A stretch of 63,762 nucleotides of DNA, taken from positions 1 to 63,762 of the forward strand of contig JBIOUU010000070.1 of NCBI GenBank assembly GCA_044867345.1. The letters run 5' to 3'. A program made the translations under genes and the position numbers. The notes under the pieces were generated by a model, which saw nothing but the letters and a program-made list of their open reading frames with translations, did not search any database and was not told the origin of the DNA. Positions 10,456-34,096 of this stretch are shown one piece after another; positions within the stretch are counted from its first letter, which is position 1, and the number at the start of each line of letters is the position of its first letter. Source of the DNA: Actinomycetota bacterium (GTDB lineage: Bacteria; Actinomycetota; UBA4738; HRBIN12).

Positions 10456-10571
10456 GCGAGCACGCCCGCCGGCGAAGCGGCTCGGGGTCGGCCGTGGGGC
10501 AGATCTGGCCGTCGACCGGGCCACCCCTAGTCCGGCACGAGGAATTGCCCCCCCAGCCTCCGAAGGACCGC

Positions 10572-11860: not shown

Positions 11861-12586
11861 ATGGCGATGCAGGGGAATCTGCCTGCCGATGTCCAGACGA
11901 ACGGATCGAGGCGTCCATCCCTCTTCGAAATCGCCGGTCCGGCTGGGGCGGGGAAGAGCACGCTGGTTCGCGCGCTGCTGGACCGCGATCCTCGCATGCA
12001 GGTCGTTCAGCTGCCGCCCCGTGTCCGGTTGGCGCCGTTCTATGCGCGTCGCGCCGTCGAGCTCCTCCCGACCTATCTCCTTCATTACCGTGGGACCCGG
12101 TGGTTCACGAGACAAGAGGCCAAGGCCATGGCCCTCGTCGAGGCTTGGCAGAAACGCGTGGATTCAAGTCCGAGTCGTGACGACCGGATCCGGCTGTTCG
12201 ACCAGGGACCCGTCTTTCGCCTGGCGGTGATGTCCGGACTCGGTCCTCCGATCGTGAGGAGCGCCCTCTTCACCGACCTGTTAGAGGGGTGGGCGAGAAG
12301 CTGGGCCGACAGACTGGATCTCGTCGTGTGGCTCTCGGCTCCCGATGACGTCCTGCTGCACCGGATCAGGACTCGCCCGCAGGATCACGCAGTGAAAGAG
12401 TGGCTCGACGCGCCTGCACTGCAACGTATCGGGCAGTATGGGGACGCGATCCAGCGGGTCATCGAGGAGCTCGCCCGGTCCTCGTCGATCCACGTCCTGA
12501 AGTTCGACACGGGGTCGCGGTCACCCGAATCCATCGCCGACGAGCTCCTGTCCTCGTTGCGCGAGGATCGGAGGCTCCGTGGCTGA
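11861..12586 (+). CDS. Stand-alone P-loop NTPase/kinase-like protein of unknown function
   Basis: It has Walker A GPAGAGKSTLVRAL and a nucleotide-kinase-like segment DLVVWLSAPDDVLLHRIRTR. Its stop overlaps the flippase start. Confidence 0.6.
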   Translation: MAMQGNLPADVQTNGSRRPSLFEIAGPAGAGKSTLVRALLDRDPRMQVVQLPPRVRLAPFYARRAVELLPTYLLHYRGTRWFTRQEAKAMALVEAWQKRVDSSPSRDDRIRLFDQGPVFRLAVMSGLGPPIVRSALFTDLLEGWARSWADRLDLVVWLSAPDDVLLHRIRTRPQDHAVKEWLDAPALQRIGQYGDAIQRVIEELARSSSIHVLKFDTGSRSPESIADELLSSLREDRRLRG

Positions 12587-14141
12587 ACGGCAGGGGCTGC
12601 TCGCACGGGGTGCCACTCGGGTCTTCTCCGATGGCACGTTGACGAAGAGAGCCTCATTGAACGCCTTTGCCTCCGGCGTCGAGCTCGTCACCCGGACCAT
12701 CGTCTCCTTGTTCCTCACGCCGCTCTTGCTCTCCCGCTTGGGAGATTCCGTCTTCGGCGTGTGGCAGGTACTCCAGCGGCTTGTTGTGCAAGCTTCCCCG
12801 GCGAGCGGCCGGCCCGGCGAGGCGCTGAAGTGGGTCGTGGCGAACCGGCAATCGTCGACCGACTACGAGGAGAAGCGCCGCCAGGTTGGTAATGCCGTCG
12901 CCGTCTGGTTCCTCTTCTTTCCCGTCCAACTCGCCGTCGGAGCCGTCGTGGGCTGGTTCGCCCCCGTATGGCTTCACGTGCCAGGAGCGAACCAGGGGGT
13001 CGTCCGCCTGGCTGCCGCCCTGCTCGTGGTGAATCTCCTCCTCGGGAGCCTCGAGGACCTGCCTCGCGCCGTGCTCCAGGGCGAGAACCTGGGATACAAG
13101 CGGATCGGCCTTGCAGCGGCCGTCGTTCTCGTCGGCGGCGCGTTGACCGCGGGTGCCCTCTTCCTCGGCACCGGACTCGTGGGCGTTGCGGCTGCAACCG
13201 TCGCAGCGGGACTGCTCTCCGGCACCGCCTACTTCTTCATCGCGAAGAAGTACGTGGTCTGGTTCGGCATCGCTCGGCCCCACCTGCGAGGCCTGGGCCG
13301 GTTCGCCGGACTGAGCGGATGGTTCCTCCTCTGGAACCTGGTGATGAAGGCGATGAACGGCGCGGACCTGGTGGTCCTGGGCATCGCCGGATCCGCCAGG
13401 TTGGTGACGACCTACACGCTTTCGAGATTCGTGCCGTTCGCTCTGGCCGCCGTGGTGGCGGTCGTCATCCTCGCGATCATGCCGGGCCTCGGCGGCCTGA
13501 TCGGCGCGGGAGACCTTGAAAGGGCCAGGAGCGTCAGGACGGAGATGATGGCGGCGACGTGGTTGATGGGAACCGTAGCCGGGTCCCTCATCCTGATCTG
13601 GGAGGCATCGTTCCTCCGCCTTTGGGTCGGCGAGCAGTATTACCCAGGGATGCCGACCATGATCCTCATCGTCACCATGGTCATGCAGTGGGCACTCATC
13701 CGCATCGATACCAACATCATCGACCTGACCTTGAACCTCCGGTGGAAGGTCTTGGTCGGTGTCCTCTCCACCGTCCTGTGTCTCGGGCTGTCCTGGGTCC
13801 TCGTCGATCGGGGATCGGGGATCATGGGGACGGTCATCGGGTTCATCGGGGGTCGGGCCATCCTCAGCTTCGTCTACCCGTGGATGATCGGACGTCGGCT
13901 TCGGATCCCCCCGATGCAGCAACTTCTCGGCCTGGTCCGCCCCACCATGGCTACCGTGGGCGTCTTCGCGGTTTCCGCATTCGTCGGCTCGATGGCCCGG
14001 ACCGGATCTTGGTCCGGTCTCGTCTTCGCGGTCGCGATCTCGGCCCTCCTCCTGGGGCCCCTCGTGTTCTTCGCCGGCCTCAGCACCATCCAACGCCAAC
14101 GCATGTGGAAACGCGCTCGACGGGTTGCTCGACTCACGTGA
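12579..14141 (+). CDS. Oligosaccharide/polysaccharide flippase (Wzx-like, MOP superfamily)
   Basis: 520 aa with many predicted TM helices. The position and size are typical of Wzx in Wzy-dependent clusters. Confidence 0.8.
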   Translation: MAERQGLLARGATRVFSDGTLTKRASLNAFASGVELVTRTIVSLFLTPLLLSRLGDSVFGVWQVLQRLVVQASPASGRPGEALKWVVANRQSSTDYEEKRRQVGNAVAVWFLFFPVQLAVGAVVGWFAPVWLHVPGANQGVVRLAAALLVVNLLLGSLEDLPRAVLQGENLGYKRIGLAAAVVLVGGALTAGALFLGTGLVGVAAATVAAGLLSGTAYFFIAKKYVVWFGIARPHLRGLGRFAGLSGWFLLWNLVMKAMNGADLVVLGIAGSARLVTTYTLSRFVPFALAAVVAVVILAIMPGLGGLIGAGDLERARSVRTEMMAATWLMGTVAGSLILIWEASFLRLWVGEQYYPGMPTMILIVTMVMQWALIRIDTNIIDLTLNLRWKVLVGVLSTVLCLGLSWVLVDRGSGIMGTVIGFIGGRAILSFVYPWMIGRRLRIPPMQQLLGLVRPTMATVGVFAVSAFVGSMARTGSWSGLVFAVAISALLLGPLVFFAGLSTIQRQRMWKRARRVARLT

Positions 14142-14146
14142 GGTGG

Positions 14147-15259
14147 ATGTTGGGCGATGGACCTGAGCGACTGGCGATCCTGACCTCGACCCTGGGCGGG
14201 GGGGGCGCGCAGCGGTCGATGATCCGGTTGGCGGGGGGGATAGCGGAGCGTGGATACGCGGTCGACCTCGTCCTTCGCCGAGCCGAGGGACACTACGTCG
14301 ACGAGGTGCAGGACGGCGTCCGTGTGGTGGACCTCGACGCTGGCCGAATGCTGTTCAGCGTGCCGGCGCTCGTTCGGTACCTGCGGCGAGAGCGCCCACA
14401 GGCGGTGCTGGCGGCGCTCAACTACGTGAACATCGTGGGGTTGTGGGCCCGGCAGGTGGCCGGTGTGCGAACGCGGTTCGTCGTGAGCGAGCGCAACACC
14501 CTCTCCCCGGCGGCGAGCCACCGCCGGACCTGGCGGGAACTGGTCAGGCCGAAACTGATCGGACGTTTCTACCGCTGGGCCGACGGGATCGTCGCGGTTT
14601 CGGAGGGCGTGGCATCCGATCTGGCCGCGGTCACCGGCCTTCCCAGGAGCCGCATCGACGTGATCCCCAACCCCGTGATCACGCCGCGCCTGAAGCAGAT
14701 GGCAAGAGCGCCCGTCGATCATCGCTGGTTCGGCGAGGGAGAACCTCCCGTCGTGCTCGCCGTGGGACGCTTGGCGCCGCAGAAGGACTTCGACACCCTG
14801 ATCCGCGCCTTCGCCGCGGTCCGAGAACGACGGCTGGCCCGCCTGTTGATCTTGGGTGAGGGCCCCGAGCGTGAGGCCCTCGAATCGGCGATCGCCCGCC
14901 TCGCCCTTGGATCGGATGTCGAGTTGCCGGGGTGGGTCACCAATCCGTATCCGTTCCTGGTCCGGTCGGCCGCGTTCGTGCTCTCGTCACGATGGGAGGG
15001 ATTGCCGGGGGCGTTGATCGAGGCGCTGTACTGCGGCGTCCCCGTGATCGCGACGGACTGTCCAAGCGGGCCGAGCGAGATCCTCGACGGTGGCCGGCAC
15101 GGTCGGCTGGTACCGGTCGGCGAGCCGGATGCGCTTGCACTCGCGATCGATCAGGCGCTCTCGGGACAGATCCCTCGACCCGGCCGCGACAGCTGGGAGC
15201 CTTACGAGCAGGAGAGCGTGGTCGGCCACTACCTCGACTTGCTGTTGGGAGGTCGCTGA
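14147..15259 (+). CDS. Glycosyltransferase family 4
   Basis: It contains LAILTSTLGGGGAQRSMIRLAGG and SSRWEGLPGALIEALYCGVPVIATDCPSGPSE. The start is ATG 14147 or GTG 14138, right at the flippase stop. Confidence 0.85.
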   Translation: MLGDGPERLAILTSTLGGGGAQRSMIRLAGGIAERGYAVDLVLRRAEGHYVDEVQDGVRVVDLDAGRMLFSVPALVRYLRRERPQAVLAALNYVNIVGLWARQVAGVRTRFVVSERNTLSPAASHRRTWRELVRPKLIGRFYRWADGIVAVSEGVASDLAAVTGLPRSRIDVIPNPVITPRLKQMARAPVDHRWFGEGEPPVVLAVGRLAPQKDFDTLIRAFAAVRERRLARLLILGEGPEREALESAIARLALGSDVELPGWVTNPYPFLVRSAAFVLSSRWEGLPGALIEALYCGVPVIATDCPSGPSEILDGGRHGRLVPVGEPDALALAIDQALSGQIPRPGRDSWEPYEQESVVGHYLDLLLGGR

Positions 15260-16476
15260 TGAGGAGACTGATGTCCTGGGCAGTCCTCGTCGTGATCTTC
15301 ACCCTCCCCCTGGAGAACGTCGTGCAGGTCGGGGCAACCACTCGGATTAGCAAGGTCGTGGGGATCGGCGCCTCGGTGCTCTGGGCGCTCACCGTTGCCG
15401 TCACCGGGAGGATCCGAAAGCCGCTTCCGTTCCACTTGGCGGTCATCTCGTTCGCGTTGTGGAATCTGGCGAGCGTCTTCTGGACCACGAACCTCACGGC
15501 CACGCTGCTGCAGTCCTTCACGTACGTGCAGCTCGCCCTGCTCGTGTACATCCTTTGGGACACCCTCAGGACGTACCAGTCGCTCCGGGCCGCCATGCAG
15601 GCATATGTCCTGGGTGCGTGGGTGTCGGTGATCAGCCTGTTCATCGGGTACGAGCGCGCCGGGGCCGAGTACCTCGGCCGGCTCACCGTGGGTACGTTCG
15701 AGGTCAACGCCCTTGGCCTCGTCTTGGGGCTCGGGATCCCCTTCGCCTGGTATCTGGTCGTGGGCACGTCCTCCGGGCGCAGGCGTCGCCTCCTGGCCGC
15801 GGTGAACCTGGCCTATGTGCCGGCGGCAGTCATTGCCGTCATGCTGACGGGCTCACGGTCTGCGATCCTTTCCCTGCTCCCCGTCCTTGCCTACATCGCC
15901 TTGGGGCTGGTTCGCCTCGGCGTCTCGCGCCGAGCGCTCGCGGCATTCGTCCTGGCCGTCGTGGGCATCTTCCTGACGACCACCCCGCTGGTGCCGCAGA
16001 GAACCGTGGAACGCCTGACGAGCACGCCCACCGCCATCACCCAAGGCAACATCGGAGGGCGGCTCAACACGTGGCGTGACGCGTATGACACCTTCGCGGA
16101 GCACCCGGTCGTGGGTACCGGGAGCGGCACCTTCGTGGCCGCGACCACGCAGAGGGCGGCGCACAACGTCGCCTTGCGGTTCCTTGCCGAGTTGGGGCTC
16201 GTTGGGTTGGGACTGTTCGCACTGATCCTGGTCTTCACCGTCTCGAACGTGCGACACCAGCCGAAGGCTCTCGCCGGACTCTGGATCAGCCTCCTGTTGA
16301 TGTGGGCGATGGGGGCCGCCGTTCACAACTTCGAGGACAGGAAGCAGACGTGGCTGGTCTTCGGCCTCGCGGCCGTTGGAGCCGGCCTCTCCTCCGACGC
16401 GATCAGAGGGCAAACGACACCTTCGCTTCGGTTCGGCCGTCGGTCTCTGGTCGACGCGACGACGCGGGGCCCTTGA
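15259..16476 (+). CDS. O-antigen ligase/polymerase family membrane protein (Wzy-like)
   Basis: It is a polytopic membrane protein with an MLTGSRSAILSLL loop, typical of the Wzy_C family. Its ATG shares one base with the upstream stop (TGATG). Confidence 0.75.
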   Translation: MRRLMSWAVLVVIFTLPLENVVQVGATTRISKVVGIGASVLWALTVAVTGRIRKPLPFHLAVISFALWNLASVFWTTNLTATLLQSFTYVQLALLVYILWDTLRTYQSLRAAMQAYVLGAWVSVISLFIGYERAGAEYLGRLTVGTFEVNALGLVLGLGIPFAWYLVVGTSSGRRRRLLAAVNLAYVPAAVIAVMLTGSRSAILSLLPVLAYIALGLVRLGVSRRALAAFVLAVVGIFLTTTPLVPQRTVERLTSTPTAITQGNIGGRLNTWRDAYDTFAEHPVVGTGSGTFVAATTQRAAHNVALRFLAELGLVGLGLFALILVFTVSNVRHQPKALAGLWISLLLMWAMGAAVHNFEDRKQTWLVFGLAAVGAGLSSDAIRGQTTPSLRFGRRSLVDATTRGP

Positions 16477-16477
16477 C

Positions 16478-17443
16478 ATGCACGCGCTCGTCACCGGATC
16501 GGCCGGGTTCATCGGAAGCCATCTCACGGAGCGGTTGATCGCCGACGGCCATCGCGTGCGAGCGGTTGACTGTCTGACGCCCTTCTATGAGATCCAGCAG
16601 AAGCTGGAGAACCAACGAGTGATGGCCGCCCTGCCAACGTGCGAGTCGATCCAGGCTGACCTGCGGACGTGCGAGCTGACCGAGATCCTCGAGGGGATCG
16701 ATGTGGTCTTCCACCAGGCGGGCCAGCCGGGCGTCCGGCCATCATGGTCCTCAGGGTTCGCGTCGTACGTGGAGCACAACATCCTGGCTACGCAACGACT
16801 ACTGGAAGGCGTGCGGGAGATGGGCGTCGAGCGCTTCGTCTTCGCGTCCAGCTCCTCCGTCTACGGTAACGCGGCGTCCTTTCCAACGTCTGAAGGCGAC
16901 CTGCCGAGGCCCCACAGCCCCTACGGTGTGACCAAGCTGGCCGCGGAACACCTGTGCAACACCTACGCGCACAATTGGGGCGTGCCCACCGTCGCGCTTC
17001 GGTACTTCACCGTCTTCGGGCCACGGCAACGTCCCGACATGGCCATGCATCGACTGGTCGAAGCCAGCCTCGCCGGCGAGGCATTCCCACTCTACGGGGA
17101 TGGTCGCCAGGTGCGCGATTTCACATACGTAGACGATGTGGTGCGAGCCAACCTGTTGGCGGCATCCGTGGCCGTTCCGCCAGGTAGCGTGATCAACGTC
17201 GCAGGAGGTACGCAGGCGACGCTCCTCGAAGTCGCCGGCATCATCGGCGAAGAGCTCGGTCACCCCACGTCGTTCGACGTTCGATCATCGCAACCGGGCG
17301 ACGTCGAGCGGACGGCGGGCTCCATCGAGCGAGCCCAGGAGCTGTTGGGATGGCAGCCGATCGTGCCTCTTCGAGACGGGCTCGCTCGACAGGTGGCATG
17401 GCATGTCGAACGCGCTGCAGCGCGCACGGCCGCGGAGCCATGA
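16478..17443 (+). CDS. NAD-dependent epimerase/dehydratase, resembling UDP-glucuronate 4-epimerase
   Basis: It contains VTGSAGFIGSHL, YGVTK, and LRYFTVFGPRQRPDMA. Confidence 0.85.
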   Translation: MHALVTGSAGFIGSHLTERLIADGHRVRAVDCLTPFYEIQQKLENQRVMAALPTCESIQADLRTCELTEILEGIDVVFHQAGQPGVRPSWSSGFASYVEHNILATQRLLEGVREMGVERFVFASSSSVYGNAASFPTSEGDLPRPHSPYGVTKLAAEHLCNTYAHNWGVPTVALRYFTVFGPRQRPDMAMHRLVEASLAGEAFPLYGDGRQVRDFTYVDDVVRANLLAASVAVPPGSVINVAGGTQATLLEVAGIIGEELGHPTSFDVRSSQPGDVERTAGSIERAQELLGWQPIVPLRDGLARQVAWHVERAAARTAAEP

Positions 17444-18183
17444 GCACTCCGGCAGCGGGGAGGGTTGCGGGCCGAGGGACGGCGGCGACCATCGTGGAGT
17501 TCTGCGGCCTCCCCGGGGCGGGGAAGTCGTACATCGCCGGCCGAGTGCTCAGCACACTTTCGGATCACGGGGTCGCGGCTCGATTCCGCGATGATGGCGT
17601 CGGTCCGGATGTGGCAGGACCCCGCCGGATCTCTCGGAAGCTTCGGTGGGTCCTGGAGCAGGAAGTCGCCAGACCCGTCGCGTCCATGCGTGTTCTCGCA
17701 TGCATCGGCGCCGGACAGAGGGACTGGTCGAGCGCGATATCCAGGTCGGTGCAGTGGTTCGTCACGCAGGGTCTGCTCGATGCCGCGCGCCACACAGCCG
17801 GGGTCCACTTGTTCCAGGAAGGGATCTTGCAGGCTCTGTGGTCGATAGGTCTGCGTGGGGAGGTGAGGAAGCTTCTTCGCCTGTTGGAGGATGGCGCAGT
17901 CCCGTGGACCAGACCGGATCTGGTCGTGGTCGTCGATGCCTCGCCCGAAGCCATCCGGAGGCGTCTGCAGGCGAGGCATTCCCGCCACAGCCGAACGCAG
18001 GAGCTGCGGGGGGCCGAGCTGGACGTCGAGCTGCGGCGAGGCGCCGATCTCCTGGCACGGTTGGTCGGCTGGTGGGAGGAGAGCGGGGGCGGTGATCGAC
18101 TCCTGCGGGTCTCCAACGACTCGGATGAAGGTCCCGTGGTCGCTGAAGTCATTGGGTTCATCGAGGCACGACGAAGCGCTTGA
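17440..18183 (+). CDS. Stand-alone P-loop NTPase/kinase-like protein, same architecture as 11861-12586
   Basis: It has Walker A GLPGAGKSYIAGRVL and DLVVVVDASPEAIRRRLQAR. Its ATG overlaps the epimerase stop (ATGA). Confidence 0.6.
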   Translation: MSTPAAGRVAGRGTAATIVEFCGLPGAGKSYIAGRVLSTLSDHGVAARFRDDGVGPDVAGPRRISRKLRWVLEQEVARPVASMRVLACIGAGQRDWSSAISRSVQWFVTQGLLDAARHTAGVHLFQEGILQALWSIGLRGEVRKLLRLLEDGAVPWTRPDLVVVVDASPEAIRRRLQARHSRHSRTQELRGAELDVELRRGADLLARLVGWWEESGGGDRLLRVSNDSDEGPVVAEVIGFIEARRSA

Positions 18184-18229: not shown

Positions 18230-19225
18230 TCAGGGGACGGATACGGGGAAGCCTCGTTTCGACCGGACGGAGTAGCCGTACCGGTGAAGCAGCCGATAGG
18301 CGAGTACCCCCACGACGAATCGGTCGATCGCAGGGAGCTCCGTGGTCCAGCGCTCGTCCTTCCTGAGGACGATCTCGGTCGTGCTGAACCTGCCATGACC
18401 GTCCGGACCATGGACCGCCGGCAACTCGGTGGGGACCCAGGGCGAGGGCCCAGGTGAAGGCGCTTTCACGCCGATCAGGCTCGCAACGGCTCCGAGCGTC
18501 GAGGCTGGGTCGTCCGCGAATTGCTCGTACTGCACGCGGAAGGATCGTTCGGGCCCGTATCGCCGGCACACCGCCTCTGCCGTGGAGTGCGCCAACATCC
18601 AGTAGATGGTGGTCCGCAAAGCCTGCACCGGATGTGGTCCACCTGGGTCGGCCATGGTGCGCTGCCGCCTGGAGAGCACGACCCCACGCGGATCCCTGAC
18701 GACGTGCACGCAGTACGTGGAGCCTTCCGGCGCGAGGGCCAGCAGGGCCGCATCGCTTGCGTTCTTCGACGAGTCGACGATGACCGTTGCGCCGGACTCA
18801 GCGGCGAACGCCTGGTACAGGTCACGGAGGATCCTGAGATACCGGCCCCTCGCGCTGGAACCGCTAGGCGCCCGGCGCCGGCGTAAGATCCTGCGCGCGT
18901 GCCACCAGTCATGTCCGATCGGTGCGACCCGGCCTTGGAGGCGTGCGACCTCATCGGGTGATGGCTGCAGGTACGGAGCTCCATCCACGAGCAGCTTCGA
19001 CCAGATCTCACATTCGGGGAGCGACTTGCCGCACCCGCACGTGCCTCTCTCCCGTTGGAGCGCAGGGCCCCAGAGCCGCCTGAGCTCACCCCCGAAGGTC
19101 GCGCCGCCAAGCAGACCCAGGAACCGGCCGACGATGCTCGTTCCGCCGCGAGAGGAGCCCAAGATGTAGACGACGTCGATGCCCGACGGTGGTTCGGCCA
19201 CCCGACGAGCATAGCCGATGGCCAC
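18230..19225 (-). CDS. Sulfotransferase family protein
   Basis: It has a PAPS 5'-phosphosulfate-binding-like loop YILGSSRGGTS and a 3'-phosphate-binding-like VVRDPRGVV. A CGCG-x5-C-x2-W cysteine motif is also present. It is the only minus-strand biosynthetic gene in this part of the island. Confidence 0.75.
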   Translation of the reverse strand: MAIGYARRVAEPPSGIDVVYILGSSRGGTSIVGRFLGLLGGATFGGELRRLWGPALQRERGTCGCGKSLPECEIWSKLLVDGAPYLQPSPDEVARLQGRVAPIGHDWWHARRILRRRRAPSGSSARGRYLRILRDLYQAFAAESGATVIVDSSKNASDAALLALAPEGSTYCVHVVRDPRGVVLSRRQRTMADPGGPHPVQALRTTIYWMLAHSTAEAVCRRYGPERSFRVQYEQFADDPASTLGAVASLIGVKAPSPGPSPWVPTELPAVHGPDGHGRFSTTEIVLRKDERWTTELPAIDRFVVGVLAYRLLHRYGYSVRSKRGFPVSVP

Positions 19226-19373: not shown

Positions 19374-20936
19374 ATGGAACAACACGTGGGATCTTCAGGG
19401 GATCGTCGCCACGTCGCCGATGGGTTGTCGGCAACTTTGGCTGAGGACACCGCCGGGGAGCAGCCAATCGTCAGTGAGGGGACCTCGCTTGGCCTCGTCC
19501 GTATGTTGTGCGCCACGCTCGAGGAGCATGGCATCCTCTACTGTCATTGGAAGAGCAACTGGGAATTGGATCGCTCGGCCAGCGGTGACAACGACCTGGA
19601 TCTCCTGGTCAGCTCGCGCGATGCACACCGGTTCACGACCGTGCTCGGCCAGTTGGGGTTCAAGCAAGCCCGAGGTCGCTCTGCACAACGCTTCCCCGGC
19701 ATCCTTCATCACTACGGGCTCGATCCCGGTTCCGGCCGGCTCGTTCATGTGCATGCCCATCACCACCTCGTGATCGGCGACGACATGACGAAGAACTACC
19801 GGGTGCCCCTCGAGGATGCCTTCCTCGAATCGTCGACCCAGGGCCCTTTGTTCCGGATCCCTGCCCCAGAATTCGAGTTCATCCTCTTCGTCCTGCGCAT
19901 GGCGCTCAAGCATTGCACGCTCGACGCTGCACTCAGCACGCGACGGGCGCTGTCGAGGTCCGAGCGGAGGGAGTTGGAGCACCTGACCGACCGGGTAGAT
20001 CTCGGTCGAGTCCGGGAGGTGGTCCGGGCGCATCTGCCCTTGATCGACGAGGCGCTCTTCGACGATTGCATGCGGGCGTTGCGGCCGGGAACGGCCCGAT
20101 GGGCTCGGGTGAGCACAGCTCATCGGCTACAGCACAGCCTGGCGGCCTACGGGAGGCATGCCCAGGTCGTCGATGGAGCCCTCCGCGTGTGGCGCCGCCA
20201 ATCAAGGAGGCTGCGCAGACGCATCCTCGGGCCAACGACGACCAACACGCTGGATCGCGGCTGCGTGATCGCGATCGTGGGCGGGGACGGAGCCGGGAAG
20301 ACCTCAGCGGTGGAAGAGCTGTCCGCGTGGCTGGCGGCCAGCTTCCGTACCGAGCGGGTCCACCTGGGAAAGCCTCCTCGTTCCCTGCTGGCGCTCGTGG
20401 TGAGGAGATCCCTACGGATCGGACGTCTGCTCGGACTGGTATCGGGCACTCCGCTGAAGCCCGTTTCCGGCGTCTCCGATGCGCGGGACCAACCTGGAGG
20501 CGCCTGGCTCGTCGTCCGGGTGCTGAGGGCGAGGGATCGCTATCGAACGTACCTGCGGGCCACGCGCTCTGCCGCGCGGGGAGGGGTCGTCATCTCGGAT
20601 CGCTATCCGATGCCACAGATCCGGCTCATGGACCACCCTCATGGGGCCTCGCTCCTCGGGTCGCAGGGGCTGAACAGGGCGACGAGGAGCCTGGTGAGGC
20701 TCGAGCAGCGCTACTACGACAGGATCATGAGCCCGGACCTGGTGATCGTGCTCAGGGTCGATCCGGAGGTCGCCCTCCGCAGGAAGGGCGATGACGAGCC
20801 GGCGGCCGTCCGGGCTCGGAGCGCCGAAGTATGGAGCCTCGAATGGGGCGACACGGCGGTGCACATCGTCGATGCCGGCCGGTCCAAGGACGAGGTGCTC
20901 TCCGAAATCAAGTCGTGGGTCTGGCCGAGATTGTGA
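19374..20936 (+). CDS. Fusion protein: N-terminal nucleotidyltransferase-like domain plus C-terminal thymidylate-kinase-like P-loop domain
   Basis: The N-terminal part has HWKSN...GDNDLDLLV, a DxD nucleotidyltransferase-type signature. The C-terminal part has IVGGDGAGKTS, VISDRYP and PDLVIVLRVDPEVALRR, which are dTMP-kinase-like. The start may be ATG 19374 or an earlier or later codon. Confidence 0.6.
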   Translation: MEQHVGSSGDRRHVADGLSATLAEDTAGEQPIVSEGTSLGLVRMLCATLEEHGILYCHWKSNWELDRSASGDNDLDLLVSSRDAHRFTTVLGQLGFKQARGRSAQRFPGILHHYGLDPGSGRLVHVHAHHHLVIGDDMTKNYRVPLEDAFLESSTQGPLFRIPAPEFEFILFVLRMALKHCTLDAALSTRRALSRSERRELEHLTDRVDLGRVREVVRAHLPLIDEALFDDCMRALRPGTARWARVSTAHRLQHSLAAYGRHAQVVDGALRVWRRQSRRLRRRILGPTTTNTLDRGCVIAIVGGDGAGKTSAVEELSAWLAASFRTERVHLGKPPRSLLALVVRRSLRIGRLLGLVSGTPLKPVSGVSDARDQPGGAWLVVRVLRARDRYRTYLRATRSAARGGVVISDRYPMPQIRLMDHPHGASLLGSQGLNRATRSLVRLEQRYYDRIMSPDLVIVLRVDPEVALRRKGDDEPAAVRARSAEVWSLEWGDTAVHIVDAGRSKDEVLSEIKSWVWPRL

Positions 20937-20956
20937 AATGAGGTCGGTGGTGCGTC

Positions 20957-22420
20957 GTGCTCACGACTGATGTATTCGGCGCTTGGAACCGGGCAGGCAT
21001 CGAGTACTGCCTGTGGAAGGGATCCTTCCACCTCCAAGACTCCCTCGACGGACGCTCCGACCTCGATGTGCTGGTGAACGTGGAGCAGCTGGGTGATGCG
21101 CAGACGATCCTGTCCCGATTCGGGTGCCGGCCCAGTCGCGTCGCTCCGGCCCGGGTCGAGGTGGGCGTCGAGGACTTCCTTGGCGTCGAAGCGGAGTCGC
21201 GTCGGTTGGTGCACTTCCACGTCTATTCCAGACTGATCGTTGGGGAGAGTCACCTGGATCGGTTCCGACTGCCCTGGGAGCGATACGTTCTGAACACGCG
21301 CACGGTTATGGGCGACGTCTATGTGGCCGATCCCGCCGTCGAGGCGGCGCTGCTGCTGATCCGATCATCGCTCCGGATCTCCGGGCTCGGTCGGTTCCTG
21401 ATGCCACTGGGACTGGTCAATGCCGGGCTGCGGGAACAGCTCGGATGGCTGCTGGACCGGACCGATCCGAAGGTCGTCCTCGAGACGGTCCGAGCCTGGG
21501 CGCTGGGGGGGTCCGTGGGCAGGGCGCTCGAGCCGTGCCTCATGGAGGGGCCCACGCCCCGGAACCTCGCCCCGCTCCGCTCGGCTCTGACGGTCGCGTT
21601 GGCCTCGCAGTCGTCCGTGAGCGGGATCCGGGCAGTGACGCGCAGGTGGCGACGTACGCTCGGATGGGCCCGCCGGGGGGTCTACCGCCGTTTCCTCGAG
21701 CGCCCCGTCCTCCTGGGGAGGGGTGGGCGCGGGGGTGGTGTCCTGGTCGCGATCATCGGACCGGATGGCTCCGGGAAATCCACCCTCGCCCGTGACCTGC
21801 GACGTTGGTTCGCGCCGAAGCTCGACGTGGTGTACGTCTACATGGGGAGCGGCGACGGACCCTCGTCCCTGATCCGATGGCCGATGAAGGTCGCGCACCG
21901 CACGATCCTTCGCTCCGGTCACCATGGGAACGGGAGGGCCGTCCTGGAGCGGCGCCATCCCGGGATGATGGGAGCGGCCAAGACGGTCTGGGCGCTGGCC
22001 CTCGCTCGCGAGAAGGAACGAAAGCTTCGCAAGGCCATGGTGGCGCGCAACCGAGGGCTCCTCGTCATCTGCGACCGTTATCCGCAATCGCAATTCCCAG
22101 GTCAGAATGACGGGCCGTTCCTCCGCGGGTGGCGGACGTCTTCGTCACCGGTCCGCCGGTATCTGGCTGCCGTCGAGGGCCGCCCGTACCACCTGGCTGC
22201 CCGGTTCTCCCCCGACCTGATCCTCCGCCTCAACGTCGACGAGGCCGCCGCGTCGAGCCGTCGACCCGAGCTCGACCCCGGATACCTGCAGGCACGCATC
22301 GAGCTCGTTCAGGCGCTCACGTTCGTCGGGTCGCTCTTCGGGGTCGTCGACATCGACGCGACCCGACCCTATGCGCGGGTCTTCGCGGACGCCGCGGACG
22401 CGATCTGGTCACGTACCTAG
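20957..22420 (+). CDS. Paralog of 19374-20936 (nucleotidyltransferase-like plus thymidylate-kinase-like)
   Basis: It contains LWKGS...GRSDLDVLV, IIGPDGSGKST, VICDRYP and PDLILRLNVDEAAASSRR. It is collinear with the upstream paralog along its whole length. Confidence 0.6.
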   Translation: MLTTDVFGAWNRAGIEYCLWKGSFHLQDSLDGRSDLDVLVNVEQLGDAQTILSRFGCRPSRVAPARVEVGVEDFLGVEAESRRLVHFHVYSRLIVGESHLDRFRLPWERYVLNTRTVMGDVYVADPAVEAALLLIRSSLRISGLGRFLMPLGLVNAGLREQLGWLLDRTDPKVVLETVRAWALGGSVGRALEPCLMEGPTPRNLAPLRSALTVALASQSSVSGIRAVTRRWRRTLGWARRGVYRRFLERPVLLGRGGRGGGVLVAIIGPDGSGKSTLARDLRRWFAPKLDVVYVYMGSGDGPSSLIRWPMKVAHRTILRSGHHGNGRAVLERRHPGMMGAAKTVWALALAREKERKLRKAMVARNRGLLVICDRYPQSQFPGQNDGPFLRGWRTSSSPVRRYLAAVEGRPYHLAARFSPDLILRLNVDEAAASSRRPELDPGYLQARIELVQALTFVGSLFGVVDIDATRPYARVFADAADAIWSRT

Positions 22421-22435: not shown

Positions 22436-23614
22436 ATGGAGGTGAGTGGAACCGGGCGGGCGGGGATGCATGAGCCGGAGCGTCGGATTCGAGTGTTGCG
22501 CCTGCTGCTCGAGATCGTCGAGACGAACGCGCCATACCAGGAGCTTTCCCGGCCTTTGGCGAAAAAGCAGGACATCACGCTCTGCAGCTACTTCCGGGCC
22601 GCTGTAGAGGTGCCGGACGACCTGCGGCTGTTCGAGGGAGACGGGACGGTTCGGGGATTCTTCCGGGCCCTCGACAGCGCGCTTCGGGCGGGAGGATACG
22701 ACGTGATCCATGCAGAGACCCCACACGTCGCGTTCCTGTTCCTTCTCGGCCACGGGATGAACCGACGGCTCATGGCATCGACCGTGTTCACGGTCAGCAA
22801 CTCGTACCGGAGCTGGAAACCTCGGAACAAGCTCCTCCTTCTGCCCGCCTTCGCCTTCTTCCATCGAGTGGTCTGTTGCGGCCAGGCCTGCTTCGCCAGC
22901 TTCCCCGCGCCCTATCGCTGGCTGGCAGGCCGCCGGTACCGGTCCGTGCCGAACGGCGTCGATATCGACAGGATCGATGCGGCCATCGCCGAAGATCCTC
23001 CAGAGGCGGACGGGACTCCGTTCACCGTCGTCTCAGTCAGTCGCCTCGTCCCCATCAAGAACCACGTGACCGTCCTTCGTGCCTTCGCGCGTTGCCGAGA
23101 GGATGGTGACCGGCTCGTCTATGTGGGGGAGGGCTCAGAACGACGGTCCCTGTCCTCGGAGATCGCAGCGCAACGGCTCGAGGACGACGTCGAGTTGCTC
23201 GGGCTTCTCTCGCGGGAGCAGGTGTACCGGCGAATGGCAGGTGCGGACGTCTACATCTCCGCGTCATACGGGGAAGGACTGCCGATCGCGGTGCTAGAAG
23301 CAATGGTTGCTCGCCGCCCGGTCATCCTGTCCGACATACCGCCGCACCGCGAGATCGCCGAGGGAGCCGACTTCATCCCGCTCGTCGATCCGAAGGACGA
23401 AGATGGCTTCGCCACCGAGATCGCGCGGATACGCGACGTGCCGCCCGAAGCGCGAGCCGAGATCGGGGATCGCTGTCGGGCGCACGTACAGACACGCTTC
23501 GCGCTCGCCAACATGCACGCTGGATACGAAGGGATCTACTCGGAGCTGGTTGCTGAACGCCGGAACAAGGGAGGGCGACCGTCCGCCAGTCGGGAGGCCA
23601 GGACCGGGGTCTGA
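22436..23614 (+). CDS. Glycosyltransferase family 4
   Basis: The C-terminal GT-B half has SASYGEGLPIAVLEAMVARRPVILSDIPPHREI. Confidence 0.8.
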   Translation: MEVSGTGRAGMHEPERRIRVLRLLLEIVETNAPYQELSRPLAKKQDITLCSYFRAAVEVPDDLRLFEGDGTVRGFFRALDSALRAGGYDVIHAETPHVAFLFLLGHGMNRRLMASTVFTVSNSYRSWKPRNKLLLLPAFAFFHRVVCCGQACFASFPAPYRWLAGRRYRSVPNGVDIDRIDAAIAEDPPEADGTPFTVVSVSRLVPIKNHVTVLRAFARCREDGDRLVYVGEGSERRSLSSEIAAQRLEDDVELLGLLSREQVYRRMAGADVYISASYGEGLPIAVLEAMVARRPVILSDIPPHREIAEGADFIPLVDPKDEDGFATEIARIRDVPPEARAEIGDRCRAHVQTRFALANMHAGYEGIYSELVAERRNKGGRPSASREARTGV

Positions 23615-23615
23615 G

Positions 23616-25409
23616 TCAGATCGTGTACTCCAAATGCAGGACCGGGGGTGACCCGTTGTCGAAGGACTTGGCGGTCCTCGTTCCCGTACCGGTGACGATG
23701 AGCACCAGGGCGTTTCCGCTCGACCACCCCGGCCGGCTCACGATCTCCTGGATCAACGAAGACAGGTCGGGGGTCCGCTGGTCGGGTCCCGCGACGCCGA
23801 CGGTCGGCCAGGCCGGAGGGACCCAGCCCACGCTCGCCGTCGTCCGAGGCCGGGACGAGACGTTGCCGATGGCGATGGTGAAGGTGTCCGGGTTGTCGGA
23901 GGCCTGGCCCTGGATGGTGAGCGAGACGGGGCCGATGGTGATGTCCTTGGTCCGGAACTGGACCGAGGCGTTCACGATCGTCGCCCCGGCGGGTACCGAG
24001 ATCCCCGTGAACCGCAGCCCGATGGTCTGGTTCACATCGGCATCCACGATGTCGAGGTCGGAGTCCAACCGCACCTTCAGCCCGACGGGATCCTCCGCGT
24101 CGTCGGACGAGGAGCTGACCGCCACGTCCATGACCTGCGACCCGCCGGACGATGAGGTCACCGTCACGTCGTCCGAGTTCGTCAACGCGGAGTCGTCGCC
24201 GGTGAGTCGCAGCACGTAGGTTCCGGGATCGGAGAACGTCGCCGTGGTGGTGGGAGTGGTGGGATCGGCGAAGCTCACGGTCCCGGGGCCGCTCACCTTG
24301 GTCCACTGCGCGGTCGTCGTGCCCGGAGGGTTCGGCAGTCCGTCGTCGCTCACCGACCCGCTCAGGCTGGCGGCAGCGGGGAAGATCACCGACCGATCCG
24401 GGCCGGCGCTGACGACGGGAGCGTGGTTCTGCGGCAGTGAGGACCCGACGGAGAACTCGAACATCTTTCCGTCGTTCTCGTTCGGGTGCCCATTGTTGTC
24501 GACCCCCCGCTGCACGACGAACAGGTCGATGGTTCCCCCCTCCACGGTGCTGGGAGCGACCGCCACGTCCGAAACGCTGTGGGGATTCGGGCCTGAGATG
24601 TCGATCGTTCGGACCAGCGACCCACCCGCAGTGACTTCGTAGAGGATGTCCGTCCCCCGGTCACCGACCAGGAGCGTGTCACGGTACGGATCGTAGCCAA
24701 GTCCTTCAGCGTCCACGACCCCGTACTGGCCCACATCGAAGTGCGAGACCGCATCGTCCCCGGTGGGGGGCACGCCGTCGAAGATGCCGTTGTTCCCCGG
24801 CGAGATGCGGTACAGCTCCTTCCCCCCGCCGTCGGACGTGAACAGATCACCGGTTGCGGTATCGAACGCGATGTCCTCGGGATCGGTGTTCCCAAACGCC
24901 CGAGTGTCGAAGGACGATCGGATGTCATCGTCGGTGCCGTAGCGTCCGTCCATCCCAGGAAGCACGACGAACACCCTGCGCACCACGTCGTCGGAGATGA
25001 AAAGGCGTCCGGTCCCCGGGTCGAACCCGAGCCCGGTCGGTTCGTTGCTGTAGGACTTGACGGACCCGGTGTCCGTCTTACCACCGTTGCGGTCGAGCTC
25101 CCAGATATTGACACCGGCCCAGATGGACATCTCCTCCACCTCGGAGTCGCTCACGAGCAGTCGATCGCGGCCAGGGAGGTACGCGATCCCTGCGGAATCC
25201 GGAACCGGGGGGACGAGCTGGTACAGGTTGGTCGTGCGGACGAGCGTAGCTGTGACTGAGGGAGCGGCCGAGCTTGCGGGAGCAGGGAACCCGACAACCA
25301 AAGCTGCTGTCAGGGTTGCCATCCCAACGAATACGGACAAGAGTCGGCGCGTCGATATCACCCGCGCGAAAATCAGGCGGTCTCCAAGTCTTCGGAAGGC
25401 TATGGCCAA
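23616..25409 (-). CDS. Secreted multidomain protein: beta-propeller-like region, PKD-like domain, and a C-terminal domain of unknown function
   Basis: An N-terminal signal/TM segment is present (LLSVFVGMATLTAALVVGFPAPASSA). Repeated Asp/Gly-rich blade-like segments follow. The PKD-like block reads APVVSAGPDRSV...WTKVSGPGTVSF...GTYVLRLTGDD. Confidence 0.55.
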   Translation of the reverse strand: MAIAFRRLGDRLIFARVISTRRLLSVFVGMATLTAALVVGFPAPASSAAPSVTATLVRTTNLYQLVPPVPDSAGIAYLPGRDRLLVSDSEVEEMSIWAGVNIWELDRNGGKTDTGSVKSYSNEPTGLGFDPGTGRLFISDDVVRRVFVVLPGMDGRYGTDDDIRSSFDTRAFGNTDPEDIAFDTATGDLFTSDGGGKELYRISPGNNGIFDGVPPTGDDAVSHFDVGQYGVVDAEGLGYDPYRDTLLVGDRGTDILYEVTAGGSLVRTIDISGPNPHSVSDVAVAPSTVEGGTIDLFVVQRGVDNNGHPNENDGKMFEFSVGSSLPQNHAPVVSAGPDRSVIFPAAASLSGSVSDDGLPNPPGTTTAQWTKVSGPGTVSFADPTTPTTTATFSDPGTYVLRLTGDDSALTNSDDVTVTSSSGGSQVMDVAVSSSSDDAEDPVGLKVRLDSDLDIVDADVNQTIGLRFTGISVPAGATIVNASVQFRTKDITIGPVSLTIQGQASDNPDTFTIAIGNVSSRPRTTASVGWVPPAWPTVGVAGPDQRTPDLSSLIQEIVSRPGWSSGNALVLIVTGTGTRTAKSFDNGSPPVLHLEYTI

Positions 25410-25636
25410 CTTCGACTATCGGACGATACGGGTCGGTCTGCCGATCGGGCATCCGCCGAATGACGTACGTTTCATACGGCGGTTTCCTCCATCGCCCGGG
25501 CCTAGATGGTAAAGCACCATCCGCAGTACCGCATTTACGGCATTCCGCGCATGTTCGCGGCCATGTACCCGCGCGAGACTCGATCGGCTAACGATCGGTG
25601 CTTCCACATCGTCATCCTGCCGGGAGGCGCGGACGC

Positions 25637-26995
25637 ATGGCATTGCGCAGGTCGCTTGAGGTCTCCGTCCCCGCCGACTTGAGTATCTCCTCACGTCTCC
25701 CATCGGCGCTTGTGCCGTGCACTGACGCCCTCGCCCTCCTGTTGGCAGCGGCCGCAACAGGCTTTCGTCCCACAGCCTTCGGGTACGGAGTCCTGGCGGT
25801 GATCGCCCTCAACATCGCCCCCCCTGTATCCAGCCGGATCAACCCTCGACTCGGCGACGACTTCGGATGGCTGCTCGGCCGACTCGGAACCTGCATGCTC
25901 GTCGTCTTGCCGATCGCAACTCTCGTCCATGAGCGAGCAGGCGAACTCCTCCTTCTCGCTGTCTCGGCCACCGTCCTGGTCGCCACGAGCAGAGGCGTTG
26001 CCTACGGCATCCAGCGGCGCTTACGGGCCAGGGGCTTGGTCTCAGAGCGTGCCCTCATCGTGGGTGCCGGAGACGTGGGCGTCGAACTGGCCCGGATCCT
26101 CGATGGACACCCCGAGTACGGCCTGCGGCCCATCGGTTTCCTGGGGGATCCCGGAGATCGAGCCCTGCCCATCCCGACACTCGGCGACAGCGAGGACCTC
26201 GAACAGGTCGTCCGGCAACAGGACGTGAGGCGCGTCGTCGTGGGCTACGGGGGTGGGGAGGATCGTCAGCTCGTCGGGATCCTCAGGCGCTGCGAGAGCC
26301 TGCCGGTCGAGATCCTCGTCGTGCCACGGCTCTTCGAGTTGAACGCCGTACCGATCGGCGCCTCTCGGGACGATGCTTGGGGGATCCCGCTCGTCCGTGT
26401 GCGTCGCCCGACCCTGCAGCCGTCGGCGCGTATCGCCAAGCGGGTCTTCGATCTGGTCGTGGGGTCCCTGATCGTCGTGCTCGTCTCACCCGTCATGTTG
26501 GTTGCCGCCTGGGCAGTCCGGCTCTCGAGTCCGGGCCCGCTCCTCTTCCGGCAACGTCGCATCGGGTTCGATGGACGAGAGTTCGAGATCCTGAAGTTCC
26601 GGAGCATGCGGGTGAACGACGACTCGGACACACATTGGGCGGTTGACCACGATGACCGCATCACGCCGGCCGGACGGCTCCTCCGTCGCACCGGCATCGA
26701 CGAGCTGCCCCAGCTGTTCAATGTGCTGAAGGGCCAGATGTCGCTCGTCGGTCCGAGGCCGGAGCGCCCCCTCTTCGCGGAACGGTTCGGCACCGCGGTA
26801 CCGGGATACAGGGACCGTCACCGGGTTCCCGTCGGCCTGACCGGCTGGGCACAGATCCACGGCCTGCGGGGCGACACGTCCATACCGGACCGGGCTCGCT
26901 TCGACAACGACTACATCGAGCATTGGTCCTTGTGGCTGGATGTGATGATCATCTTGCGAACGATCTGGCTGGTCCTCAAGGGCACCGGACGGTGA
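25637..26995 (+). CDS. Priming polyprenyl-phosphate sugar-phosphate transferase (WbaP/exopolysaccharide phosphoglycosyltransferase family)
   Basis: N-terminal TM helices precede the C-terminal catalytic domain, which has KRVFDLVVG, FRQRRIG, KFRSM, DELPQLFNVLKGQMSLVGPRPERP. An ATG at 25637 is preceded by GGGAGG. Confidence 0.85.
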   Translation: MALRRSLEVSVPADLSISSRLPSALVPCTDALALLLAAAATGFRPTAFGYGVLAVIALNIAPPVSSRINPRLGDDFGWLLGRLGTCMLVVLPIATLVHERAGELLLLAVSATVLVATSRGVAYGIQRRLRARGLVSERALIVGAGDVGVELARILDGHPEYGLRPIGFLGDPGDRALPIPTLGDSEDLEQVVRQQDVRRVVVGYGGGEDRQLVGILRRCESLPVEILVVPRLFELNAVPIGASRDDAWGIPLVRVRRPTLQPSARIAKRVFDLVVGSLIVVLVSPVMLVAAWAVRLSSPGPLLFRQRRIGFDGREFEILKFRSMRVNDDSDTHWAVDHDDRITPAGRLLRRTGIDELPQLFNVLKGQMSLVGPRPERPLFAERFGTAVPGYRDRHRVPVGLTGWAQIHGLRGDTSIPDRARFDNDYIEHWSLWLDVMIILRTIWLVLKGTGR

Positions 26996-27885
26996 CGTCC
27001 TCCACGACCCGCACGTCGATCGGGCAGCTCCCGAACTTCCTCATCATCGGGGCCATGAAGGCCGGCACGACCAGCCTCTATCACTATCTCCGTGCCCATC
27101 CGCAGGTGTTCATGTCCTCCGTGAAGGAGCTCGACTTCTTCGCTCATGACCCGAACGGCAGCCGCGGTTTGGATTGGTATCGGAGGCAATTCGCAGCGGC
27201 TGAGGCGGGCTCGGTGGCGATCGGGGAAGCATCCACGATCTATACGAAGTTCCCACGGTTTCCAGGGGTTCCCGAACGGATCGCAGCACAGGTTCCGAAC
27301 GTCAGGCTGATCTACGTCATTCGCCATCCGATCGAGCGGATCCGTTCCCACTATCAGCATCAGGTGGCCGTGGGCGCGGAGCGTGCACCGTTCGAGCGAG
27401 CCGTCTTCGACGATCCCATCTACCTCGACTACAGCCGATACGCGATGCAGATCGACCAGTACCTTCCGTACTTCCCTCAGGATCGCTTGCTGGTCATCAC
27501 CTCGGAGGACCTCCGACACGAACGACTGGGAACGGTCCGCCGGGTCTATGAGTTCCTCGGCGTGGAGCCCGACTACACTCCTCCGAACTTGGATCGAGAG
27601 TTCTACCGGTCGGGCGAGCGGGTGACATATCCACCGCTCGCTTGGAGGATCCGGAGGACCCTGAAGAGACACCTCCCGGCGAGCAAGCGGGCCAAGGAAT
27701 TGGTGGATGCGCCGTTCGCTCGATGGCTGAGACGCCCCCTTCCCGGGAAGGAGGGAGCAAGCCCCTCCCGTGCCCAATCGATCCCGGAGGAGGTCCGCGA
27801 GCCGCTCGTTCGGCTCCTCGAGGAAGACGTGCGGCGCCTCCGCGGCTACGTGGGCCCTGGATTCGACGGCTGGGGGATCGCATGA
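26992..27885 (+). CDS. Sulfotransferase domain protein
   Basis: It has the PSB loop FLIIGAMKAGTTSLYHYL and the 3'PB region IYVIRHPIERIRSHY. A GTG at 26992 overlaps the stop of the priming transferase (GTGA). Confidence 0.85.
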   Translation: MTSSTTRTSIGQLPNFLIIGAMKAGTTSLYHYLRAHPQVFMSSVKELDFFAHDPNGSRGLDWYRRQFAAAEAGSVAIGEASTIYTKFPRFPGVPERIAAQVPNVRLIYVIRHPIERIRSHYQHQVAVGAERAPFERAVFDDPIYLDYSRYAMQIDQYLPYFPQDRLLVITSEDLRHERLGTVRRVYEFLGVEPDYTPPNLDREFYRSGERVTYPPLAWRIRRTLKRHLPASKRAKELVDAPFARWLRRPLPGKEGASPSRAQSIPEEVREPLVRLLEEDVRRLRGYVGPGFDGWGIA

Positions 27886-32040: not shown

Positions 32041-32067
32041 TTAGCACTCGCGAGGGGCGAGTGCTAA
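32041..32067 (+). promoter_or_regulatory. CIRCE operator (HrcA binding site)
   Basis: It is a perfect match to the consensus: TTAGCACTC-N9-GAGTGCTAA. Confidence 0.95.
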
Positions 32068-32109
32068 ACCGCCCCACAGGACGCCACCGAGCATGGCAAG
32101 GAGGAAGGA

Positions 32110-34096
<1,987 letters not shown>

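Follow-up and report, generated by a model that had tools for sequence, protein, structure and literature searches.

What do two adjacent genes contribute to an exopolysaccharide (EPS) cluster when each of them joins a nucleotidyltransferase-like half to a half that resembles thymidylate kinase? The question is raised by a stretch of 63,762 nucleotides from an Actinomycetota bacterium of the GTDB lineage UBA4738; HRBIN12 (assembly GCA_044867345.1, contig JBIOUU010000070.1), which is referred to here as the window. The two genes, A and B, are paralogs of a widespread bifunctional enzyme with intact catalytic motifs that makes up, with a small P-loop kinase, an accessory cassette found in Wzx/Wzy-type EPS loci. 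The cassette is genetically tied to the flippase. At a probability of roughly 40%, estimated from sequences, structural models, and analogy, it would add a phosphate-linked decoration to the lipid-linked repeat unit of the EPS before the unit is flipped.

The relationship between the two genes is evident. The two adjacent, collinear paralogs of 520 and 487 amino acids (aa) described in an earlier, sequence-only reading of the window are borne out by BLASTP, which aligns A and B over 487 collinear residues with 29% identity (E 1e-31), far beyond chance. All motifs quoted in that reading are found in the translations: A carries HWKSN...GDNDLDLLV (K60, S61, G71, D74, and D76), GGDGAGKT (303-310), DRYP (409-412), and PDLVIVLRVD, and B carries LWKGS...GRSDLDVLV (K21 and D35-L-D37), GPDGSGKS (268-275), DRYP, and PDLILRLNVD. 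Every residue that is invariant in the family alignment is present in both proteins. Gene A begins with an ATG; a TTG upstream, at 19326, would extend the protein to 536 aa. The chosen starts of both genes are supported by full-length homologs of exactly the same lengths, namely, P0001 (520 aa; 93% identity and 100% coverage to A) and P0270 (487 aa; 92% identity to B). Because only 20 nt separate A from B and 15 nt separate B from the downstream glycosyltransferase gene of family GT4, the three genes probably form a single operon. The tandem order of A and B recurs in two other loci, L087 (70% identity) and L038.

The C-terminal half of the fusion has the fold of a dTMP kinase (TMPK), as had been read from its motifs. 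In a full-length model of A, computed with AlphaFold2 from 32 family sequences (predicted local distance difference test [pLDDT] 84.4; predicted template modeling [TM] score 0.79), the C-terminal half matches dTMP kinases in the PDB (Foldseek, E 5e-8; target TM 0.55-0.72). The P-loop and DRYP are present in both A and B; A also has A-R387-D-R, D409-R410-Y-P, and the lid arginines R470 and R482. The Pfam model Thymidylate_kin (PF02223) scores 34.2 bits on A against a cut-off of 27, a threshold that B does not pass. Sites of the TMPK type hold a phosphate monoester acceptor via the arginines of DR(Y/F) and A-R.

Nevertheless, the fusion should not be taken for a housekeeping enzyme. A profile of the C-domain reaches TMPKs in the PDB at E 1e-8 but aligns solely over domain residues ~6-41 (the P-loop) and ~154-229 (the C-terminal third). 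The acceptor-binding middle of the domain does not align to TMPKs and contains a family-specific insert of ~60 residues that is partly disordered in the model. The NCBIfam equivalog model for dTMP kinase, TIGR00041, scores 32.0 bits on A and 19.9 bits on B, against a cut-off of 83.25. Because both the equivalog score and the alignment of the acceptor region fail, the fusion protein is, on these sequence criteria, not a genuine dTMP kinase. It shares with Tmk the fold, the GxDGxGK(S/T) motif with its TMPK-typical Asp, DR(Y/F), A-R-D-R, and basic lid residues; however, Tmk is encoded by a ~200-aa housekeeping gene, whereas the kinase half of the fusion is joined to a nucleotidyltransferase and encoded in EPS loci. 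NCBIfam has no family that scores above its cut-off on A or B, and PDB sequence searches with A, B, and a profile of the N-terminal domain yielded nothing except P-loop matches.

The N-terminal domain was modeled separately (residues 36-292; AlphaFold2, pLDDT 85.4) because TMPK matches swamped the Foldseek search with the full-length protein. Its matches in the PDB comprise LnuA (E 6.6e-4), JHP933 of H. pylori, ANT(2'')-Ia, CCA-adding enzymes, Cid1, and OAS, and include the entries 5cfs and 4xje. All top matches are nucleotidyltransferases (NTases) of the Pol-beta type, at modest TM scores of 0.3-0.5, and the resemblance to Pol-beta or 'uncharacterised nucleotidyltransferase' domains that had been proposed from the motifs holds up. 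Invariant residues of the domain are W-K60-S61, followed after 12 residues by D74-L-D76, and H125xH127, E147, E168, and R175. A fits the superfamily signature hG[GS]x9-13Dh[DE]h in its spacing and its DxD but has Lys in the Gly position; in B, the corresponding residues are K-G. Judged from alignment columns alone, candidates for the third catalytic carboxylate, expected on a neighboring strand, are D117 (nearly invariant) and E147 (invariant). The Pfam family NTP_transf_5 (PF14907) scores 27.3 bits on A, under its cut-off of 31.2, and does not match B, for which Pfam yields solely P-loop matches; many homologs carry precomputed PF14907 matches. According to the model, the domain clearly belongs to the fold class of Pol-beta NTases, with marginal membership in PF14907.

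The family is large. There are at least 1,667 full-length homologs of A (~490-540 aa), whose automatic names are solely 'thymidylate kinase' or 'hypothetical protein', and a profile of the N-domain retrieves at least 2,253 clusters at 50% identity (1,839 at E<=1e-10 and 986 at E<=1e-30). Nearly all of the best N-domain matches are ~500 aa long, which indicates that the domain is essentially confined to this fusion. The B-type subfamily is rarer (93 matches). Carriers belong to at least seven phyla (Acidobacteriota, Chloroflexota, Planctomycetota, Actinomycetota, Gemmatimonadota, Cyanobacteria, and Proteobacteria) and include Pyrinomonadaceae and other Acidobacteriota, Chloroflexota, Planctomycetales, Gemmatimonadales, and Cyanobacteria as well as Blastococcus, Modestobacter, Aeromicrobium, Nocardioidaceae, Nitrosomonas, Methylobacter marinus A45, and Nitrosococcus watsonii.

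The sequence-only reading had named two outcomes that would refute its interpretation, a loss of the catalytic DxD or Walker A residues in most orthologs and the placement of the fusion in a characterized family of unrelated function. However, DxD and Walker A are each kept in 297 of 303 two-domain members, K-S in 298, and DR[FYHW]P in 287, and no characterized family claims the fusion in profile, structure, or literature searches. Because all invariant residues are kept in both paralogs, both domains of A and B look catalytically competent. No description of the fusion family was found in the literature, and no such gene is mentioned for the characterized sulfated-EPS clusters synechan xss and Actinoplanes wps-1. 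A stand-alone protein of ~48 actinomycete genomes (48 loci, L039-L086; Streptomyces, Kitasatospora, and Actinacidiphila) matches the kinase half only (~30% identity). These loci were set aside as unrelated because neither the N-domain, the small kinase, Wzx, a sulfotransferase, nor EPS genes are nearby, and the proteins are classified, by sequence, as a separate TMPK-like family.

The genomic context of the fusion has a conserved core. It was surveyed with phmmer in 37 loci and the window (38 in total), using query proteins drawn from these loci. All eight neighborhoods with called genes are Wzx/Wzy EPS loci, and a Wzx or Wzx-like gene is present in 34 of the 38 loci. A small P-loop kinase is encoded directly downstream of the fusion in 24 of the 35 loci with enough sequence, and anywhere in the locus in 27. 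Likewise, a Wzx or a membrane protein of the 'unk520' type lies no more than 5 kb downstream of the fusion in 25 of 32 loci, and anywhere in the locus in 30. Proteins of the latter type (~530 aa, at least nine hydrophobic segments) replace Wzx beside the small kinase in 23 of the 38 loci. The representative in the window has no Pfam match; it is probably a divergent Wzx-type flippase of a family missed by current Pfam models. The partners that are conserved with the fusion are the small P-loop kinase and the Wzx flippase, whereas the sulfation genes are optional.

In the window, a complete Wzx/Wzy-type EPS cluster identified with Pfam spans about 3.4-36.6 kb (Table 1). The canonical trio is split in this cluster: the GT4, small-kinase, and Wzx-like genes stand 5 kb upstream of A and B, which are flanked by a divergently transcribed sulfotransferase gene and another GT4 gene. 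Pfam confirms the sulfotransferase and the P-loop protein that had been noticed next to A and B.

The same partners also occur as natural fusions (Table 1), in which the constant element is the kinase-like half. The fused small-kinase domains match the small-kinase gene at 11861 and not the divergent P-loop gene at 17350, and the latter, which has similar proteins in L038 and L025, was therefore rejected as the canonical kinase partner. The sulfotransferase domain of P0302 is homologous to the sulfotransferase encoded next to A. Of the three GT4 proteins of the window, the one encoded directly upstream of the small kinase is closest to the GT4 fused to B-type kinase halves (26-28% identity to P0340, P0345, and P0350 by BLASTP, which is weak evidence); the GT4 downstream of B is more distant and was ruled out as the counterpart. 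Of these partners, Wzx, GT4, and sulfotransferase would each be expected to act on the repeat unit while it is linked to its lipid on the cytoplasmic side of the membrane. The acceptor of the small kinase is not readable from its profiles because they reach generic P-loop kinases only.

Sulfation genes are less constant. Sulfotransferases were found in 15 of the 38 loci; among the 18 loci in which 8 kb or more of sequence flanks the fusion on either side, they are present in seven and not detectable in 11, and ATP sulfurylase or adenosine 5'-phosphosulfate (APS) kinase is present in four. In 14 loci without a detected sulfotransferase, there was also none among the 25 commonest Pfam families listed for the 99 leftover open reading frames (ORFs), which were dominated by GT4. 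On this basis, a family dedicated to sulfation was rejected, and sulfation is a frequent but not an obligatory companion. Where sulfate activation is encoded beside the fusion in related loci, the ATP-sulfurylase and APS-kinase genes are canonical.

Two arrangements near sulfation genes deserve mention. In two Chloroflexota loci, the gene directly upstream of the NTase-kinase fusion encodes a pyruvate-kinase barrel N-terminally fused to PUA_2 and ATP sulfurylase (L002:7749-10004 and L008:6334-8601; Pfam PK, E 1e-63 to 1e-66). A stand-alone barrel of 356 aa is encoded in another such cluster (L005:457-1527, minus strand). The fusion of the barrel to ATP sulfurylase, of which we know no description, may represent a local device for regenerating ATP or driving the synthesis of 3'-phosphoadenosine 5'-phosphosulfate (PAPS). 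Genes that encode the kinase half only (L011:19730-20965, L012:14492-15685, and L030:9980-11251, all on the minus strand) each lie directly upstream of a sulfotransferase gene that has the same orientation and that they overlap; the three loci concerned are from Actinomycetota and also possess a full-length fusion.

From the modeled folds, the catalytic motifs, the paralogy, the size and spread of the family, the synteny, and the fusions, we infer a substrate, an order of steps, and a product. The target of the cassette would be the repeat unit linked to undecaprenyl diphosphate (Und-PP), on the cytoplasmic side of the membrane. The small kinase would phosphorylate a sugar hydroxyl, and the TMPK-like domain, accepting a monoester by analogy with dTMP kinases, would add a second phosphate, which the LnuA/ANT-like NTase domain would then cap with a nucleotidyl or glycosyl-phosphate group. 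The outcome would be an anionic, phosphate-linked decoration made ahead of flipping by Wzx, in many loci alongside the sulfation of the same polymer.

Several points weigh against this proposal. The N-domain resembles its structural matches only weakly (E 6.6e-4 at best, TM 0.3-0.5), and PF14907 is under threshold on A and has no match on B. The TMPK fold normally uses nucleotide acceptors, so that a role in nucleotide handling would fit at least equally, and the ATP-sulfurylase genes directly upstream of the fusion (in L002 overlapping its start, and in L008 and L013) point to sulfate activation. The proximity to Wzx could result from co-inheritance of the cassette and not from a shared substrate.

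By analogy, the only functional precedent, itself tentative, for a decoration by a kinase and an NTase of this kind is the pair PsmK/PsmN, which modifies the lasso peptide pseudomycoidin by placing a hexose on phospho- or diphospho-serine (PMC6993621). PsmN is described as an 'uncharacterised NTP transferase', and the ANT(2'') entries 5cfs and 4xje are its only structural relatives; it needs its DxD and adds the hexose to the phosphate put on by the kinase PsmK (PMC6993621). Like the cassette, this system pairs a kinase with a co-encoded NTase that resembles ANT(2'') and has a conserved DxD, and both NTases have 5cfs and 4xje as relatives. PsmN may also belong to PF14907, to which the N-domain shows weak matches. 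By contrast, PsmK/PsmN are separate proteins with an HPr-kinase-like kinase and a peptide serine as acceptor, encoded in a cluster for peptides that are made by the ribosome and modified after translation (RiPPs), whereas the cassette has a P-loop TMPK-like kinase fused to the NTase and a second kinase, adjacent or fused, in an EPS cluster.

Other systems share single elements with the fusion. LnuA and ANT(2'')-Ia have a Pol-beta core with DxD, as does the N-domain, and move AMP to a sugar hydroxyl, but the likeness is weak (E 6.6e-4 to 3e-2; 11-13% identity), and the N-domain differs by its much larger helical subdomain, its conserved HxH, and the absence of a link to resistance. In LicA/LicC (CDP-choline) and Cj1416/Cj1415 of Campylobacter (phosphoramidate), a kinase and an NTase encoded in a surface-polysaccharide locus install a phosphate-containing decoration. 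Their folds are different (choline-kinase and GlmU-type NTase folds, and an APS-kinase homolog), and no sequence family in common with the fusion was found, in which the two activities are joined in one protein and tied to Wzx. The folds and the logic of kinase plus NTase are already known; the architecture and its context are new.

The sequence-only reading had compared the fusion to PAPS synthases, which likewise combine nucleotidyl transfer with a P-loop kinase, and the fusion does often co-occur with sulfation genes. This comparison is still speculative and is not the best-supported reading: the models for ATP sulfurylase (PF01747) and APS kinase (PF01583) match neither A nor B, canonical versions are encoded separately (in the window, the APS kinase at the cluster edge), and the analogy is weakened by the sulfotransferases missing from many loci that bear the family. 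The broader notion that the kinase domains and the NTase domain serve the sulfotransferases of the cluster by producing, recycling, or removing adenine nucleotides strikes us as rather unlikely, although several observations speak for it. They might provide an alternative route to APS or PAPS, phosphorylate the inhibitory 3'-phosphoadenosine 5'-phosphate (PAP), or convert AMP to ADP that feeds a pyruvate-kinase step; a speculative version leads from PAP via 3'-phospho-ADP and 3'-phospho-ATP to PAPS. The TMPK fold suits a nucleotide 5'-phosphate as acceptor, and sulfotransferases at 15 of 38 loci far exceed their usual rate in bacterial EPS clusters by our own estimate. Physical links point in the same direction: the sulfotransferase fusion P0302, the kinase-half-only genes directly upstream of sulfotransferases (L011, L012, and L030), and the ATP-sulfurylase genes upstream of the fusion (L008, L013, and L001), which in L002 end 4 nt inside it. 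However, such a role leaves unexplained the fusions with Wzx and GT4, the near-constant synteny of small kinase and flippase, and the loci without a detectable sulfotransferase (11 of the 18 well-covered loci; 14 loci scanned with Pfam, with none among the families listed), and it is weakened by a region for binding nucleoside monophosphates that does not align to TMPKs. Because canonical ATP sulfurylase and APS kinase are present where sulfation genes occur, a second route of sulfate activation seems unnecessary.

The occurrence of the family without sulfotransferases would also agree with a donor unrelated to sulfate. In such a scheme, which we regard as distinctly improbable, two kinases and an NTase would produce a carrier, either nucleotide-linked or similar to PAPS, from which a separate transferase passes a group of the phosphate or phosphonate type to the glycan. 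Kinase plus NTase is the standard logic of head-group activation, as in LicA/LicC and Cj1415/Cj1416, but the NTases known to activate head groups are of another fold (GlmU/LicC type), LnuA- and ANT-like enzymes modify the final acceptor directly, and no conserved candidate transferase was found adjoining the cassette. In a survey of phosphonate clusters, the phosphoenolpyruvate (PEP) mutase of cluster family GCF 540 is flanked by a 'thymidylate kinase' and PF14907 (Microb Genom 2022, PMC8942020). These genes may belong to the same fusion family, which, with a phosphonate pathway as neighbor, would be connected to a further anionic decoration of glycans; Pfam scans of the window proteins, however, detected no PEP mutase. 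The many partners joined to the kinase-like half (NTase, small kinase, GT4, sulfotransferase, and Wzx) are also reminiscent of a docking module, and BY-kinases and other P-loop proteins regulate EPS assembly. Nevertheless, it is very unlikely that the domains, by binding nucleotides or the Und-PP carrier, serve a Wzx/GT complex only as scaffold or switch: DxD, HxH, the Walker A lysine, DR(F/Y), A-R-D-R, and the lid arginines are conserved across phyla, and such full sets of catalytic residues in both domains make a non-catalytic role hard to accept. The chance that A and B are duplicated housekeeping dTMP kinases with an irrelevant N-terminal extension is next to nil. Many members are automatically annotated as 'thymidylate kinase', and Thymidylate_kin is above threshold on A, but the equivalog scores (32 and 19.9 bits versus 83.25) and the alignment to TMPKs, limited to the P-loop and the C-terminal third, argue against it, as do an N-domain as conserved as the kinase domain and a context strictly of EPS loci.

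Whether the cassette carries out chemistry that is new to bacterial exopolysaccharides is doubtful. A sugar of the repeat unit might be phosphorylated stepwise to a mono- or diphosphate and then capped while the enzymes are bound to Wzx, and untagged units would not be flipped; alternatively, PAP might be salvaged to PAPS without dephosphorylation, which would work together with the adjoining fusions of pyruvate kinase and ATP sulfurylase. If true, either would represent a new enzymatic route in thousands of environmental bacteria of at least seven phyla. The decorations of EPS govern charge, viscosity, metal binding, biofilm structure, and recognition by phages and hosts, and bacterial sulfated polysaccharides are sought as biomaterials. 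A large family with intact catalytic motifs and a fixed place by the flippase of Wzx/Wzy systems is mislabeled as 'thymidylate kinase' and lacks a curated name. Solving its reaction would close a gap in the Wzx/Wzy model (the role of a kinase-NTase pair at the flipping step), put right an annotation error that is widespread, and could reveal a new anionic modification of glycans or a new branch of PAPS metabolism. Cultured carriers such as Methylobacter marinus A45, Nitrosococcus watsonii, Blastococcus, Modestobacter, and Aeromicrobium sp. Root495 allow direct testing.

Table 1. Features of the EPS cluster in the window (coordinates) and natural fusions of the family in other genomes (protein identifiers; TMPKL, TMPK-like kinase half).
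Feature	Position or protein	Strand	Evidence
GAF-domain histidine kinase and two LuxR-type response regulators	5176-6780, 6696-7472, 9676-10455	+	
Wzz/BY-kinase-type co-polymerase	7492-9528	-	Pfam Wzz and AAA_31
GT4 glycosyltransferase, directly upstream of small kinase	10167-11852	+	Pfam
Canonical small P-loop kinase partner, 241 aa, AAA_33/AAA_18/dNK-like	11861-12586	+	Pfam, synteny, fusions
'unk520' multi-pass membrane protein, 520 aa; start overlaps end of small-kinase gene	12579-14141	+	At least nine hydrophobic segments
Wzy-type polymerase (O-antigen ligase family); true start probably further downstream	14932-16476	+	Pfam Wzy_C
Second, divergent small P-loop protein; start codon uncertain	17350-18183	+	Pfam AAA_33, 24.3 bits
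Sulfotransferase (Sulfotransfer_3), transcribed divergently from A	18230-19225	-	Pfam, 43.1 bits
Gene A, 520 aa, NTase-like and TMPK-like kinase domains, A-type (common subfamily)	19374-20936	+	ORF, homologs, AlphaFold2
N-domain of A, residues ~36-290, Pol-beta-fold NTase and helical subdomain	19479-20243	+	Invariant columns, Pfam, Foldseek
C-domain of A, residues ~291-520, dTMP-kinase-fold P-loop kinase	20244-20936	+	Pfam, Foldseek, profile versus PDB
Gene B, 487 aa, two-domain paralog of A, B-type (rarer subfamily)	20957-22420	+	ORF, BLASTP
GT4 glycosyltransferase, 15 nt downstream of B	22436-23614	+	Pfam
PKD-domain protein	23616-25409	-	Pfam K319L-like_PKD
Priming sugar transferase (Bac_transf)	25598-26995	+	Pfam, 223 bits
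Second sulfotransferase (Sulfotransfer_1)	26923-27885	+	Pfam, 62.4 bits
Calcineurin-like phosphoesterase (Metallophos), after second sulfotransferase	27937-29208	+	
Type I phosphodiesterase/nucleotide pyrophosphatase	34677-36071	+	
Canonical APS kinase, cluster edge, PAPS precursor step	36068-36622	+	Pfam APS_kinase (PF01583), 205 bits
NTase-TMPKL-small kinase, ~700-740 aa	P0150, P0235, P0238, P0255, P0259, P0261, P0268; 721-aa ORF in Aeromicrobium L035		
Wzx-NTase-TMPKL, 1054 aa	P0219		
Sulfotransferase-NTase-TMPKL, 830 aa	P0302		
Small kinase-TMPKL, ~465 aa	P0330, P0331, P0333, P0338, P0343, P0346		
GT4-TMPKL, ~670 aa	P0340, P0345, P0350		

The cluster of the window also holds epimerases and a UDP-glucose dehydrogenase, and comprises in all three GT4 genes, two sulfotransferases, and two small P-loop proteins. 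At its edge, the phosphodiesterase gene overlaps the start of the APS-kinase gene by 4 nt, a pairing that suggests a coupled handling of adenine nucleotides (PAP or APS). Metallophos proteins were encountered three times among the 14 loci without a sulfotransferase and may represent a recurrent accessory gene. Three ORFs of ~340 aa (29271-30302, 32041-33063, and 33079-34089, all on the minus strand) have no Pfam match at E<=0.05 but are likely real genes because their GC content at third codon positions is high. A large PKD protein (K319L-like PKD) is encoded in 13 of the 38 loci (including L004, L005, L006, L018, L021, L027, and L031), with faint SdiA-regulated/NHL matches among its relatives; it is probably secreted and perhaps has a role in processing or anchoring the polymer. 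The histidine kinase and the LuxR-type regulators that flank the Wzz/BY-kinase gene probably regulate the cluster, by analogy with the XssS/XssR system of the synechan cluster, to which they can be likened.

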